Shown piece after piece: positions 14,591 to 56,765 of a stretch of 64,000 nt of DNA (position 1 is its first letter; each line of letters opens with the position of its first letter). Made by a program: the position numbers and the translations under genes. This stretch comes from an uncultured bacterium (GTDB lineage Bacteria; Oederibacteriota; PGYV01; CAWJRG01), in NCBI GenBank assembly GCA_963845185.1, contig CAWJRG010000009.1:536743-600742 (forward strand). The letters are read 5' to 3'. The notes below the pieces were generated by a model. The model searched no databases. It worked only from the letters and a program-made list of their open reading frames with translations, and had not been told where the DNA came from.

Positions 14591-14626
14591 TTTCGCACGG
14601 ATGATTTAGAAAATATCCATGCAATC

Positions 14627-14785
14627 ATACCGCTTGTCTGGGTAGTTTTTATATTAAATGAATTATGGATACTATCCGTCAAATAATCCACCGGATTATT
14701 TAACTGACCGCTCGGGACTTGAGCGGGTATAAGAGTCCGTAAAATTTTGTCCTTGCTGTTGACGCTCGACAAAATCAACGGACTC
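14627..14785 (+). promoter_or_regulatory. Conserved structured 5'-leader element, copy A (candidate novel cis-regulatory RNA); core 14708-14785
   Basis: Contains ccgctc-ggga-cttgagcgggta. Outer 8-bp stem gagtccgt/acggactc encloses inner stem aaaattttgtc/gacaaaat and a loop with ctgttgacg. Ends 5 nt before the secG RBS (gaggtg). Relative to copy B it carries an extra roughly 62-nt insert at 14646-14707. Confidence 0.55.
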
Positions 14786-14801
14786 TAAAAGAGGTGAGAA
14801 T

Positions 14802-15278
14802 ATGCTTTATTCAATAGTATGGTTTTTACACGTAGTAATCACATTTCTTCTTATAATCGTCGTTCTGTTGCAGACAGGTAAAGGTTCTGAAATAGGTTTT
14901 GCCCTTGGTGCAGGCACTGCACAGACAATGTTTGGCGCAAGCGGGGGCAGGACATTCATAACAAAGTTTACCGTAATTCTCGCAGTTTCCTTTATGTGCA
15001 CTTCGATATTCCTGGCCATATACCAGTCAAAAAGTCTGGAAGGGTATCATGGTGTTATTAAGCCTGTAAAAAGCTCGGGAATGCCCGAAGCTCCAGGAGC
15101 CCAACAGCAGGCACCGGCATCGAATGAACAGGGAAATGCAAATGAAATGGCAGTCCCAAATAATAAAGAAGGCGGAAAATCCCAGGCAAATTCACAGCCT
15201 GCGCCCGCGAATAAACCAGTAGTTCCGTCCGGTCAGAATTCAGGGTCAAATCCGCAACTGCCGGTGGAAGGAAAGTAA
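14802..15278 (+). CDS. secG: Preprotein translocase subunit SecG with a long low-complexity C-terminal extension
   Basis: N-terminal SecG signature LLQTGKGSEIGFALGAGTAQTMFGASGG and two TM segments. About 80 extra C-terminal residues are rich in Q/A/P/N/S. Confidence 0.8.
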   Translation: MLYSIVWFLHVVITFLLIIVVLLQTGKGSEIGFALGAGTAQTMFGASGGRTFITKFTVILAVSFMCTSIFLAIYQSKSLEGYHGVIKPVKSSGMPEAPGAQQQAPASNEQGNANEMAVPNNKEGGKSQANSQPAPANKPVVPSGQNSGSNPQLPVEGK

Positions 15279-50893: not shown

Positions 50894-51116
50894 AGAGGTG
50901 CAGGATGCTTAACACAAGAAATTTAAGGCACGGCAAGAAGCCTTTTATGGCTGCCAGGTTTAAGGATGCGGCGAAATTCGGCAAAGGCGCAGTGCCGAAA
51001 GGATACGCAAGCACAAAAAAGCAAAAACAATTTAATCAACCAACACAAAAATCCGATAGTTCCGCAAATCAAAAATAATACTTAATTTCATGGTGGGTTT
51101 TATTGATTGACAGAGC

Positions 51117-51145
51117 CATAAACAGGGGGTATAATTTTATACGGT
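51117..51145 (+). promoter_or_regulatory. Perfect consensus sigma70 promoter (TTGACA-17-TATAAT) for the NHL gene
   Basis: ttgaca at 51117-51122, 17-nt spacer, tataat at 51140-51145, 29 nt before the ATG. Confidence 0.85.
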
Positions 51146-51173: not shown

Positions 51174-52304
51174 ATGAAAAAACTTTTCATATCAGTTTGT
51201 TTTACTTGGTTTTTATTTATGTTATTCACTATGGGGTGCAGCAAGAAAAGTCCAACTCAAGCAGAACCTACTAACACGCCATATGTAATCACAGCAACAT
51301 TCACAAACACACCAAATATGACAGCAACCACACAGACTGCAGCAACGCAAACAGTTATTGCCTTAAAAACAGCTGGCCCTTCAGCACAAGCTACAGCAAC
51401 AGCCCAGGTACAACAAACAGCAACCATGACTGCGATGTTTGTAACACAATGGGGTAGCGTTGGAAGCAACAACGGACAACTTTATCATCCTTTTGGAGTA
51501 GCAGTAGACAACAGTGGTGGAAGTAGTAACGGAGATGTATATGTTGCAGATAATGGTAATAACAGAATTCAAAAATTCAGCAATACAGGTGCATTTATAG
51601 CCTCATGGGGAATTGTTGGTGGGCAGGCGGGAAGTGGTGATGGGCAGCTTAATTGGCCTCAGGGAGTAGCTGTAGATAGTGGTGGAAATGTGTATGTTTC
51701 AGAAGTAGGTAATGATCGAATACAAGAATTTAATAGCGCAGGAACATATATAACTAAATGGGGTAGTAGCGGAAGCGGCAACGGGCAGTTTAATTATCCC
51801 GTTGGAGTTGCGATAGACAATATTAGTGGAGATGTATATATTGCCGATACTGGGAATAGCAGGATCCAAAAATTCAACAGTACAGGAACATATATAACAC
51901 AATGGGGTGGTTCTGGAACAGGCAATGGACAATTTAAGGGTTTCGGAGTGGCAGTTGACAGCAACGAAGATGTTTATGTCGCAGATACAAGTAATAACAG
52001 AATTCAAAAATTTGATAGTACGGGAACATATATAACACAATGGGGTGGTTCTGGAACTGGTAACGGGCAGTTTAACCAACCCACAGGGGTAGCAATAGAC
52101 AGCAACGGAAACGTGTATGTTGCAGACTCTGTTAATAGCAGAATACAAGAATTTAACAGTACAGGTACATATATAACACAATGGGGTAGTAGTGGAACCG
52201 GTAATGGGCAATTTGTTAGTCCTTATGGAGTAGCAGTAGACAGTAGTGGAGATGTTTATGTTGCTGAATGGACTAATAACAAAATTGATAAATTTCATCC
52301 ATAA
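51174..52304 (+). CDS. NHL-repeat beta-propeller lipoprotein with Thr/Ala/Gln-rich N-terminal linker
   Basis: Lipobox FTMGCS. Six NHL repeats of the form GQFNxPxGVAVDSxGxVYVADxxNxRIQKF. Adjacent repeats are nearly identical at the nucleotide level. Confidence 0.85.
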   Translation: MKKLFISVCFTWFLFMLFTMGCSKKSPTQAEPTNTPYVITATFTNTPNMTATTQTAATQTVIALKTAGPSAQATATAQVQQTATMTAMFVTQWGSVGSNNGQLYHPFGVAVDNSGGSSNGDVYVADNGNNRIQKFSNTGAFIASWGIVGGQAGSGDGQLNWPQGVAVDSGGNVYVSEVGNDRIQEFNSAGTYITKWGSSGSGNGQFNYPVGVAIDNISGDVYIADTGNSRIQKFNSTGTYITQWGGSGTGNGQFKGFGVAVDSNEDVYVADTSNNRIQKFDSTGTYITQWGGSGTGNGQFNQPTGVAIDSNGNVYVADSVNSRIQEFNSTGTYITQWGSSGTGNGQFVSPYGVAVDSSGDVYVAEWTNNKIDKFHP

Positions 52305-52334
52305 GGTTTTTAGGTTTAAGTAGTAAAATCTGAT

Positions 52335-52429
52335 ACCGCTTGTCCGGTTTGAAACCGGACTTGAGCGGGTACATGATTTCGTAATACTTTGCTTGCACCT
52401 GTTGACGGCTTGTCAAAGTAAACGAAATC
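52335..52429 (+). promoter_or_regulatory. Conserved structured 5'-leader element, copy B
   Basis: ccgcttgtcc, then hairpin ggtttgaaacc, then ggacttgagcgggta. Outer stem gatttcgt/acgaaatc. Inner stem tactttg/caaagta. Loop contains ctgttgacg. Ends 1 nt before RBS agggagg. Confidence 0.55.
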
Positions 52430-52443
52430 AAGGGAGGCGGTCA

Positions 52444-53416
52444 ATGAAAAAAGTTTTAATTCCAGTGTTAATTCTCATCGTAATTTTAATTTCAATTACT
52501 TGCTCAAAAAAATCCTCACCTACTTCCCCTGCGGCAACAGCGATTCCAACAATTAACTATTTGGCGCTTGTGTCGGTTCCTGGCGGGACATTTACCCAAA
52601 CTGACGGCACAAATATGTTCAGTAATACAATTTCCACTTTCAGTATTGGAAAGTATCAAGTCACATATGAATTGTGGTACACAGTATATCAATGGGCTAT
52701 TGCTAACGGTTATACCTTCCAAAACTCAGGTACCGAAGGCAGCGTAGGAACAGCCGGCGCAGCACCAACCACTTTAAATCAACCAGTAACTACTATAAAT
52801 TGGCGGGATGCCATAGTGTGGTGTAATGCTTACAGCATGAAAACCGGATTAACGCCTTTGTATTATCAAGATTCAGGTTTCACTACATTGATCAAAGATT
52901 CTACAAACGGAGCATATGGCAGCAGTATAAATACAACAGCAGGAAGTTTTGATAACCCATATGTGGATTGGAACGCAAACGGATATAGGTTACCAACAGA
53001 AGGAGAATATCAATACACGGCAAGTTATATAGACGGAACGAACTGGACGCCGTATAACTATGCCAGCGGCGCAACAGACGCCTATACCGACACCACGGCA
53101 ACCGCGCTTGTAGCGTGGTATAGCGGGAATTGCAGCAATACGCAGGCTATAGGCACATTAGCCGCGAATAAGCTTGATATCTATGGATGATATGTCAGGT
53201 AATGTTTGGGAATGGTGCTTTGATTGGTATGGAGCATATCCAACAACTTCAGAAGTAAATTATACAGGACCTACAAGCGGATCTGCTCGTATGAATAGGG
53301 GCGGTGGTTTTGTTGATGCCGCAGTAAACTTACAAGTGGGCTACCGCCACACTAGTTTTATGCCAGGACCGTATCAAGCGTTAGTCAACTACGGCTTTCG
53401 CATTGCACAGCATTAA
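52444..53416 (+). pseudogene. FGE-sulfatase (formylglycine-generating-enzyme) family lipoprotein, interrupted by a +1 frameshift near 53180
   Basis: Signal peptide with lipobox (SITCSKK). The N-terminal part (52444-53190) ends ...ANKLDIYG*. The +1 frame continues with the family hallmark MSGNVWEWCFDWYG...RGGGF (53174-53416). Together the two parts give a full-length FGE-like domain. Confidence 0.7.
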
Positions 53417-54538: not shown

Positions 54539-54585
54539 TTTTGCCGGAAGGAACGAAAAGATGTGTAAATAATTTTAAATTTTAT

Positions 54586-54614
54586 TTGACATTAACCAAT
54601 ATTTTTGTTATACA
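54586..54614 (+). promoter_or_regulatory. Sigma70-like promoter of the ilv-leu leader (TTGACA-17-TATACA)
   Basis: ttgaca at 54586-54591, 17-nt spacer, tataca at 54609-54614, 31 nt upstream of the leader-peptide ATG. Confidence 0.55.
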
Positions 54615-54645
54615 TATATCAACTCAAAACAGGAGGCTGTTGAAA

Positions 54646-54780
54646 ATGAAAGCAGGAAGAAGCAAGAAAAATTTCAAAAATTCTCCTGCTATAATTCTGC
54701 CCTCCGCTTTGAATCCGAAGACACTAACACTCGTAGTAGTACTCTTATTGGTCGTTCTGCGACTTACAGTCGTCCTGTAA
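54646..54780 (+). CDS. ilv-leu operon leader peptide (44 aa), rich in Leu/Val/Ile/Thr regulatory codons
   Basis: Translation MKAGRSKKNFKNSPAIILPSALNPKTLTLVVVLLLVVLRLTVVL. RBS caggagg lies 7 nt upstream. The last 19 codons include 8 Leu, 7 Val and 3 Thr. Confidence 0.7.
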   Translation: MKAGRSKKNFKNSPAIILPSALNPKTLTLVVVLLLVVLRLTVVL

Positions 54781-54895
54781 TATCGGGCGAAAGTAAGCGC
54801 AGGATAAGGCTAAAACCCCGAAAAAACCCCTTATTTTACGCTTACGCCCGAATAAACAGGATTGTTTTATAGGGCAAAAAAGCCTTGTTTTTTAG
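54781..54895 (+). promoter_or_regulatory. Attenuator region with alternative hairpins downstream of the leader peptide
   Basis: Long-range pairing tcgggcg-aaag-taagcg (54783-54799) with cgcttacgcccga (54839-54851). This encloses ataagg...ccttat-ttt (54804-54837). A further gccc/gggc pairing is followed by aaaaaagccttgttttttag (54871-54893). Confidence 0.5.
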
Positions 54896-54974
54896 CTGTT
54901 TCGTATGGTAATATATAACGCTTTTCAATAAATATTGGATTGCGGGTATATAAAAGATATTGAGATATAAGAAG

Positions 54975-55071
54975 CACCACTTGTCCTCGGCTTTACAGCC
55001 TCGGACTGGAACGGGTGCAAGCAAGAGTAATATTTTGCTGCGCCCTGTTAGCTTGCAAAATAAACTCTTGC
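54975..55071 (+). promoter_or_regulatory. Conserved structured 5'-leader element, copy C (between the attenuator and ilvD)
   Basis: ccacttgtcc...cggactggaacgggtg. Outer stem gcaagagt/actcttgc. Inner stem tattttgc/gcaaaata. Loop tgcgccctgttagctt. Ends 2 nt before RBS aggagg. Confidence 0.55.
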
Positions 55072-55085
55072 ATAGGAGGCTTATT

Positions 55086-56765
55086 ATGAGAAGCGATAAA
55101 ATGAAAAAAGGAATAGAAAGGACGCCGCATAGGGCGCTTTTTAAAGCAATTGGATACACTGAAGAGGAATTGAAAAGGCCTATTATCGGAGTTGTCAACT
55201 CATTTAATGAAGTAATACCCGGACATATACATTTGAATACCATATGCCAAGCAGTAAAAGACGGCATTAGGATGGCAGGCGGTACTCCTATGGAGTTTCC
55301 GACAATAGGAATTTGCGACGGAATTGCCATGGGGCTTGAAGGCATGAAATATTCCCTTGTCAGCAGGGAACATATAGCAGACAGTGTTGAGATAATGGCC
55401 AGTGCTTATCTTTTTGACGGGCTTGTGTTTATACCGAACTGCGACAAGATAATTCCGGGTATGTTAATGGCAGCGGCGCGATTGAATATACCGGCAATAT
55501 TTGTGTCCGGCGGGCCCATGCTCAAAGGCAGATTCAAGGATAAAGTTTACGATCTGATTTCCGGCGGTTATGAATCAGTCGGCGAGTTTATGGCAGGCAA
55601 GATAGACGAAGAGACATTGAAAATCAGGGAGGATATCATGTGCCCGACCTGCGGCTCGTGCTCGGGCATGTACACGGCAAACACGATGAACTGCATGACC
55701 GAAGCAATAGGCATGGGGTTGCCTGGGAACGGCACGATACCGGCTGTGTATTCGGCAAGAATCAGGCTCGCCAAAGAAACAGGCATGAAAATAATGGAGC
55801 TGTTGGAAAAGGACATTAAACCGCGGGACATAATGACGGAAAAGGCGTTTAACAACACTTTTACTGTTGATATGGCCCTTGGCGGGTCTACCAACACGGT
55901 TCTGCATCTTCCGGCCATTGCCAATGAGTGCGGAATAAAATTCGACCTGGCAAAGATTAACGCGATATCGGAAAAAACACCGACACTTTGTAAACTGTCG
56001 CCTTCAAAACTTCCGTCAGGCGGCCAGCACCACATAGAGGACCTTTGCGCGGCAGGCGGCGTGCAGGCAGTCATGAAAGAACTTTCGAAGAAAAAACTTA
56101 TAAATCTCGACCTGATTACCGCGACAGGCAGAAAAGTAAAGGATAATTTAAAAACCACGCAGAACATGGATGCGAATGTAATCAGGACGCCTGAAAACGC
56201 ATATTCGCAGCAGGGCGGCCTTGCAATACTTTTTGGAAACCTGGCACCTGAAGGAGCTGTAGTCAAACAGTCGGGCGTGGCGCCTGAAATGATGAAGCAG
56301 GAATGCAAAGCAAGGGTTTTTGATTCTGAAGACGACGCACAAAAAGCAATATTCGGAAAAAAAATAAAGCCGGGCGACTGCGTTGTCATAAGGTACGAAG
56401 GCCCAAAAGGAGGGCCGGGCATGAGGGAAATGCTCGGGCCAACTTCGGCAATAGAGGGCATGGGGCTTGATACGCAGGTATCTCTTATAACAGACGGCAG
56501 GTTTTCCGGCGGCACAAGAGGAGCGGCGATAGGCCACATATCCCCAGAAGCAATGGAAGGCGGGCCCATAGGTTTGATAAACGAAGGTGATATTATATCA
56601 ATAGACATAGCGGCGAAAAAAATAGAACTCAAAGTAAGCGACGAGGAACTGGAAAAACGGAAAAAAGAATGGAAACAGCCGCCTTATAAAATAACAGAGG
56701 GCGTGTTATATAGATATGCGCAGATGGTGACATCTGCAAGCACAGGTGCGGTTTTTAAGAAATAA
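55086..56765 (+). CDS. ilvD: Dihydroxy-acid dehydratase
   Basis: N-terminal [40 protein letters not shown]. [2Fe-2S] Cys ligands in [19 protein letters not shown] at 55086 follows taggagg. Confidence 0.95.

Follow-up and report, generated by a model that had tools for sequence, protein, structure and literature searches.

The window (the whole stretch of DNA analysed, positions 1-64000) carries essentially all of its long open reading frames (ORFs) on the + strand, a bias that confounds gene orientation with replication orientation. On this strand, a gene for an NHL-repeat lipoprotein (51174-52304), which has its own TTGACA/TATAAT promoter near 51100-51135, is followed by a structured leader element (LE), here termed copy B (52331-52429), and then by a gene for a lipoprotein of the FGE-sulfatase family (52444-53416). 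Copy B starts 26-29 nt downstream of the NHL stop codon (52302-52304), close to the roughly 30 nt given in the original prediction. Because no promoter or terminator was found between that stop codon and the first hairpin of copy B, the element is probably intercistronic and not a stand-alone leader.

Copy B folds into two hairpins, P1 and P2. The first (52334-52371) has a base helix UACC/GGUA, a conserved asymmetric internal loop, a helix GUCC/GGAC and the cap GGUUUGAAACC, with AUACCGCUUGUCC as its 5′ strand and GGACUUGAGCGGGUA as its return strand; in the DNA, ccgcttgtcc lies at 52336-52345, the cap ggtttgaaacc at 52346-52356 and ggacttgagcgggta at 52357-52371. The second (52375-52429) is closed by an 8-bp outer stem, GAUUUCGU/ACGAAAUC (gatttcgt/acgaaatc, 52375-52382 and 52422-52429), which leads through an AAUA/UAA internal loop to an inner helix CUUUG/CAAAG and a loop with CCUGUUGACG. 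From the end of P2 to the start of the Shine-Dalgarno sequence (SD) is 1 nt, and the segment that follows, AAGGGAGG (52430-52446, + strand), holds the SD at 52430-52437 (GGGAGG at 52432-52437) and the ATG of the FGE-sulfatase gene at 52444-52446. The P1 strands, cap, outer stem and ribosome-binding site ascribed to copy B beforehand are therefore all present in the sequence. The predicted fold of copy B (-40.9 kcal/mol) is better than that of shuffled sequences (z = -3.7), in support of the claim that a structured element occupies the leader of this gene, and the SD is unpaired in the minimum-free-energy folds of copy B and of a further copy, C.

The downstream gene is indeed frameshifted, as had been proposed. 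It is divided into two frames (ORF1 52444-53190 and ORF2 53174-53416), its Pfam profile is split into 5-179 and 180-254 at the frame change, and homologues of 320-342 aa span the repaired protein from end to end, reading ...ALGIYDMSGNVWEW (...ALGIY-DMSGNVWEW) across the break where the window reads ...LDIYG* / ...MDDMSGNVWEW. Since homologues read straight across, the comparison implies a putative 4-nt insertion at ~53185-53188 (TATG-GATG-ATATG) as the break. The change looks like a 4-nt tandem duplication, not a homopolymer slip, and an assembly error is a possible source of it. As the lesion is single, the gene is otherwise conserved and both halves keep the invariant residues, the lesion looks young and unrelated to the LE. 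The further suggestion that this is a decaying locus with a retained leader was not upheld: besides the lesion being single, LEs precede more than 50 open ORFs and copy B scores as well as any copy. Upstream of FGE homologues with 52-70% identity, including that of a Goldbacteria metagenome-assembled genome (MAG), no full LE was found. In another genome of the same sequencing run (contig L087, 190-316), half an LE, comprising the P2 loop CCTGTTGACGGCT, the 3′ strand AAACAAACGCTATC and ATAGGGAG, lies behind a TTGACA promoter and before an FGE paralogue.

Copies A and C and the nested module

Two more copies lie on the + strand of the window. Copy A (14625-14785) stands between tpiA and secG, with its SD, GAGGUGA, at 14791-14797 and the secG ATG at 14802; copy C (54972-55071) precedes ilvD, with the SD AGGAGG at 55074-55079 and the ATG at 55086. 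The likeness of A and B, which had been set out as refutable by alignment, withstood that comparison: the two have in common an exact 12-mer, ATACCGCTTGTC, and an exact 15-mer, GGACTTGAGCGGGTA, and their P2 hairpins have the same architecture with different stem sequences linked by compensatory changes. In a structural alignment of A, B and C, 94.9% of cells pair and 9 of the 26 pairs are changed on both sides, among them 5 of the 8 pairs of the P2 outer stem.

The region of copy C has some features of its own. A mechanically called ORF (54960-56765, 601 aa, TTG start) reads through the copy, which means that LEs can mislead gene callers; several IlvD homologues in databases are called at 568-598 aa, not 559, and may carry a similar extension. 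Just past the ORF at 54541-54780 lies an imperfect inverted repeat of ~90 nt (54773-54861), found almost identically in contig L091 from a relative, followed by a terminator-like hairpin at 54869-54888.

Copy A was predicted to be a B-type element with an insertion of ~62 nt at 14646-14707. A profile search placed the insert close by, at 14640-14706 on the + strand (67 nt), in the apical loop of P1, and the inverted repeat reported inside it was recovered with arms at 14675-14689 and 14693-14707. The insert is a separate nested two-hairpin module (IE), in copy A made up of the hairpins GGGUAG...CUAUCC and GUCAAAUAAUCC-ACC-GGAUUAUUUAAC. Further IE copies occur on metagenome contigs (L038 837-905; L029 641-705; L008 1226-1298; L012 4645-4710 and 10882-10947; L045 5535-5600; L024 234-299). 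Across copies the module measures ~67 nt and reads GGGUAG...CUACCC plus GUCAAAUAGUCC-ACA-GGACUAUUUGAC; 93% of its cells pair, and the second hairpin has three pairs with compensatory changes. All eight full copies in the ~1.06 Mb searched lie inside or beside an LE and in the same orientation, in the P1 cap in copy A, L008 and L024 and in the P2 cap in L038, L029, L012 and L045. Orthologous LE copies in L007 and L008 differ by the presence of the module.

A third repeat type, an AT-rich imperfect hairpin of GGGATTT / AAATNCC-like heptamers, often lies just upstream of an LE. It interrupts P2 of a broken LE in L024 (minus strand, ~198-130) and stands in the upstream flanks of the elements at L025:11429, L012:10618, L036:961 and L045:5662; it was looked for in the window and is absent there.

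A multi-copy family with covarying stems

To define the family, we built a degenerate DNA pattern from copies A, B and C; it found 46 loci in four JGI metagenome samples, many of them on large contigs of one sample. A first covariance model gave 65 matches at E<0.01 in these loci, one of which is on a Logan contig identical to the window (L001), where it represents a truncated duplicate of copy A, and the four metagenomes hold 64 further copies beyond A, B and C. From the 65 matches, without copy B or C and with the truncated duplicate of A, we built a second model, R2. The covariance-model search envisaged at the outset singled out all three copies in the window: R2 scored C at 96.8, B at 95.6 (E ~6e-19) and A at 77.3 bits, and the next best match in the window reached 14 bits.

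Searches further afield returned nothing comparable. R2 had no match in 604 kb of other, unrelated genomes, including the nearest GTDB genome (55% identity in ArgRS), the pattern had none in a scan of one genome per GTDB species, and the nearest genomes by ArgRS (≤55% identity) lack the LE. Neither the LE nor the nested module matched the viral contigs searched, and blastn against plasmid and phage collections gave no match. A scan of the whole window with Rfam 15 at gathering thresholds returned one tRNA only, permissive scans (E up to 10) of A, B and six metagenome loci gave only sub-threshold chance matches, for example to snoRNA and miRNA families, and we found no description of the element in the literature. 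Copy B is a real member of a multi-copy, lineage-restricted family of ~100-nt two-hairpin elements, and this family is undescribed and absent from Rfam and from the literature searched. The window proteins IlvD and FGE are 75-76% and 52-58% identical, respectively, to proteins of Candidatus Goldbacteria/Goldiibacteriota MAGs, and ArgRS is at most 55% identical to that of any GTDB representative; judging from these comparisons, the family appears confined to one uncultured lineage related to Candidatus Goldbacteria.

The pairing of both hairpins is well maintained across the family. In the 65-sequence alignment, 90.7% of cells are paired, compared with 78% in shuffles, and double changes occur in 17 of the 26 pairs (199 cells), concentrated in P2; the covariation signal is lost when the partner strand is slid. 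Each hairpin is an autonomous domain. In P1, a short helix at the base is followed by an asymmetric internal loop that is invariant, by the helix GUCC/GGAC and by a cap that varies; two modelled pairs that are unpaired in about half of the copies are part of that conserved loop. P2 starts with an 8-bp stem of variable sequence, above which come the AAUA/UAA internal loop, likewise invariant, a helix rich in U and another variable cap. Nineteen positions are at least 97% invariant (ACC.CUUGUCC, GGACU.GA.CGGGU, GUAA...UUUG and CAAA.UAAAC), and these near-invariant positions are concentrated in the two internal loops, whereas covariation marks the stems. The outer stems of P2 can be sorted into a small number of discrete sequence classes, and every class has an SD flavour of its own. 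This looks like descent within a repeat family, and for this reason recent spread may lie behind part of the sequence conservation. At L083 11060-11140 and L010 330-260 (minus strand), another conserved hairpin, GUAAUACUGCAGAUCG...CGAGAUGCAGUCCUGUG, replaces P2, and the family may be broader than R2 detects.

Placement beside start codons and turnover between relatives

The position of the element is highly regular. In 51 of 67 copies, the SD lies 0-3 nt past P2, the start codon 11-18 nt past P2 (mode 13-14) and the ORF is open; the other copies are mostly upstream members of tandems, cut by contig ends or degenerate. More than 50 open ORFs are preceded by an LE, and all 20 that were scanned matched ordinary full-length protein families. 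The products are functionally unrelated, including AtpD, acyl-CoA dehydrogenase, UvrC, TypA, Obg, Rrf2, GatC, RibH and HPF, as well as GalT-GalK, SSB, EF-P, KdpF, KdpA, SecG, IlvD, the ABC binding protein SBP_bac_5 and many lipoproteins. The LE stands on the sense strand, in some places downstream of a promoter and in others between two cistrons. Upstream of it, sigma-70-like promoters are over-represented (20% of copies, 3% in shuffles), with predicted -10 boxes at a variable distance of 10-36 nt, and about a quarter of the copies are intercistronic; 16 of 62 copies start ≤40 nt after the stop of an upstream same-strand ORF. The copy before atpD begins 1 nt past such a stop, the upstream ORF being probably atpG by conserved operon order; another such copy occupies the space that lies 3 nt before the efp leader; and copies are found both upstream of kdpF and in the kdpF-kdpA spacer. 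No conserved upstream ORF was found in the LE, a three-codon AUG-AUU-UCG-UAA being present in one class only. The SD behind a native LE has a predicted unpaired probability of 0.49, compared with 0.36 behind a shuffled one (p = 8e-4), a modest effect that would fit an insulating role.

Tandem LE arrays also occur. The junction ...ACGNNAU-UAUAUC-AAGCACC recurs in L024 and L042, which suggests either the spread of dimers as units or the repeated use of one joining mechanism. The idea that the SD-distal tandem copy is always the more decayed one was ruled out, as the distal copy scores higher in L009 and L028.

Comparison with relatives revealed that the element comes and goes at individual genes. 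The secG site is empty in contig L088, which is 88-89% identical to the window at the nucleotide level in tpiA and secG and has only TAA-ATAATT-AAAGGTGAAAAT-ATG between the two genes; the window has ~193 extra nt, made up of 35 nt of unique filler and copy A, and keeps the native SD, and no target duplication was seen at this filled/empty pair. At ilvD, L091 (IlvD 93% identical) matches the window up to ~54933 and then has its own 49-nt leader and SD, whereas in the window 42 nt of filler are followed by copy C and AUAGGAGG; the whole 5′ UTR has been replaced. The fillers at secG and ilvD had no match elsewhere in the sequences compared, and neither 21.7 kb of L091 nor the more distant relatives searched, a Candidatus Goldbacteria MAG among them, contained an LE. 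The orthologue of the SBP_bac_5 gene carries an LE in L012 and none in the window, and an NHL lipoprotein gene has a B-type LE in L011, where the window NHL gene has a plain promoter and leader. Because of the empty sites in relatives, the LE is dispensable at a given gene.

Where the element is kept, it is well conserved. Two orthologous pairs in L007 and L008 retain LEs that are 83% identical, with compensatory substitutions in the caps, next to third codon positions that are 56-58% identical. Retained LEs are thus under purifying selection, and the empty sites together with this conservation make the element both dynamic and constrained where kept.

L011 (2-745, minus strand) matches window 52331-52540 in a B-type LE followed by a near-identical signal peptide (MKKVLIPVLIL...CSKKSSP), which heads an NHL-repeat protein in L011 and the FGE protein in the window; a 5′ module of leader and signal peptide appears to be common to different lipoprotein genes.

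Known relatives in kind and the possible role of the element

Several known families of repeats invite comparison. BOX elements of Streptococcus pneumoniae and ERIC/IRU elements of enterobacteria are co-transcribed intergenic structured repeats with tens to hundreds of copies per genome that form stable RNA hairpins, differ in presence or absence between strains and have proposed effects on flanking mRNA stability and expression. The LE resembles them in being multi-copy, in its hairpins, in its modularity (boxA-B-C there, LE plus nested IE here), in its presence/absence differences and in lying in spacers in gene orientation, with transcription taken from position only. It has no sequence relation to them that we could find and, unlike them, is strictly sense, ends 0-3 nt before the SD, has orthologous copies under measurable purifying selection and is seen in one lineage related to Candidatus Goldbacteria. 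The Correia elements (CREE) of Neisseria, which are bounded by terminal inverted repeats of 26 bp and make a TA target duplication, occur in both orientations, are co-transcribed, fold as an RNA hairpin and alter the processing and expression of the neighbouring gene. They share with the LE the character of a mobile repeat of ~100-150 nt that is often upstream of genes; the LE, however, consists of two unlike hairpins, lacks terminal inverted repeats and shows no target duplication at the only filled/empty pair that is clean. The mycobacterial MIRUs, direct repeats with small overlapping ORFs for translational coupling, likewise lie between operon cistrons, oriented with the genes and in variable tandem number, whereas the LE has a covarying two-hairpin structure and no conserved ORF. 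The LE belongs with these co-transcribed intergenic structured repeats (BOX, ERIC, Correia, MIRU), its own transcription being judged from position, and it differs from them in that it lies strictly in sense and directly against the SD, in that its two hairpins are unlike and lack terminal repeats, and in carrying a second module nested within it. The E. coli ompA 5′ UTR, B. subtilis aprE and the RNase III sites of phage T7 shield or define the 5′ end of the mRNA and promote translation, and, like the LE, place hairpins directly upstream of a strong SD. Those leaders are single-locus or phage-specific, whereas the LE is a dispersed family and, unlike the 5′ stabilisers, does not seem to be fixed at the transcript 5′ end, with predicted -10 boxes 10-36 nt upstream of it.

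The LE might be a purely selfish DNA repeat of the MITE or REP kind with no role at the RNA level, its hairpins serving transposition, for example through a Y1 transposase that recognises single-stranded DNA, and its survival beside the SD marking the one tolerated spot in tight intergenic spacers. The patchy distribution with empty sites in a close relative, the tandem and truncated copies, the second module inserted within the LE and the discrete sequence subfamilies would all be expected of such a repeat; strand counts give no strand-specific G·U signal (20 G·U, 34 A·C, the A·C cases mostly at terminal pairs), and the extreme same-strand gene bias in the window could tie LE orientation to the direction of replication. 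Of the features of a classical MITE, however, we found dispersed copies with presence/absence polymorphism and neither of the other two. The 5′ end, UACCGCUUGUCC, and the 3′ end, ACGAAAUC plus the SD, are not complementary, the repeats being internal to P1 and to P2, and the dissimilarity of P1 and P2 argues against one protein recognising both ends as in IS200/IS605 or REP/RAYT systems; no target-site duplication is seen at secG, the 5′ UTR of ilvD is wholly replaced, and insertions bring 35-42 nt of unique filler. Moreover, the adjacency to the SD holds even where tens of nucleotides of leader are free after the promoter, and the conservation of orthologous copies far exceeds that of third codon positions. 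We consider a purely selfish origin of the pattern unlikely. It is still somewhat less probable, in our judgement, that the LE is a regulatory leader that responds to a ligand or to an RNA-binding protein, either as a riboswitch-like sensor or as a translational operator that puts many genes under one global signal. Invariant nucleotides clustered in two internal loops between covarying stems, tandem arrangements such as some riboswitches have and a site at the SD that suits translational control would be in keeping with it. Against this stand downstream genes without a common pathway, copies inside conserved operons (just before atpD and between kdpF and kdpA), orthologous sites that are empty in a ~90% identical relative and the lack of an expression platform: there is no terminator after copy B and no alternative helix that would sequester the SD, which the minimum-free-energy folds leave unpaired in both B and C. 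A metabolite riboswitch in particular was ruled out by the unrelated genes, the missing platform and the empty secG and ilvD sites.

Two further readings concern RNA processing and DNA. A processing module, whether a self-cleaving ribozyme of a new type or an RNase III-type site, would cut the leader or the spacer between cistrons, leaving the downstream cistron a defined 5′ end protected by a hairpin, and would be a natural counterpart of synthetic RBS insulators. It would account for two helix/internal-loop/helix domains with invariant loop nucleotides, many copies and tandem copies beside unrelated genes, frequent intercistronic placement and a P2 that forms a ~20-bp stem with an internal loop directly before the SD, as do the RNase III sites of phage T7; but permissive scans with E up to 10 matched no Rfam ribozyme, the loops differ in size from those of the hairpin ribozyme, and we regard it as very unlikely. 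Compared by eye, K-turn, loop E and hairpin-ribozyme loop patterns did not fit. The conserved GGACUU and (C)GUAA at a fixed spacing of 17 nt, together with the frequent TTGAC in the P2 loop, could instead be a signal at the level of DNA, either an operator or an alternative-sigma (ECF-like) promoter of the form GGACTT-N17-CGTAAT. That reading is hardly tenable: GUAA may be preceded by C, A or U, and every such change is compensated on the far P2 strand, the P1 5′ strand is equally conserved and the stems covary, neither of which a promoter explains, and sigma-70-like promoters lie upstream of the LE. The ECF-like promoter was ruled out because its putative -10 base varies and covaries with P2.

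The reading that we favour, with a confidence of about one half, is that the LE is a mobile or duplicative cis-acting leader cassette of mRNA that would insulate, stabilise or process the start of translation; a function of the sense-strand RNA is suggested by position and orientation only. As a portable cassette acting in cis within the mRNA, the LE would fold on itself and so buffer the ribosome-binding site that follows from the sequence upstream, and it would give the downstream cistron a structured 5′ flank that could protect against 5′-end-dependent decay or offer a processing site. A shared trans-acting factor may recognise the invariant internal loops. A stronger version, in which the LE is a domesticated portable translation-start module that is read by a dedicated host factor or cleaves itself, seems to us rather improbable. 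If it were true, dozens of unrelated genes would receive a standard mRNA 5′ end and standard ribosome access from one RNA cassette, and a translation-start cassette swapped between genes as a unit would be the natural equivalent of engineered RBS insulators.

For this uncultured lineage, the immediate gain is a covariance model with which genomes related to Candidatus Goldbacteria can be annotated. If the LE acts in cis, the organism would re-use one portable structured leader, ribosome-binding site included, in front of many unrelated genes, some of them cistrons within conserved operons, and genes would exchange entire 5′ UTRs over short evolutionary times. The family would then provide a natural test bed for how upstream structure affects translation initiation and mRNA stability, and a ready-made insulator part.
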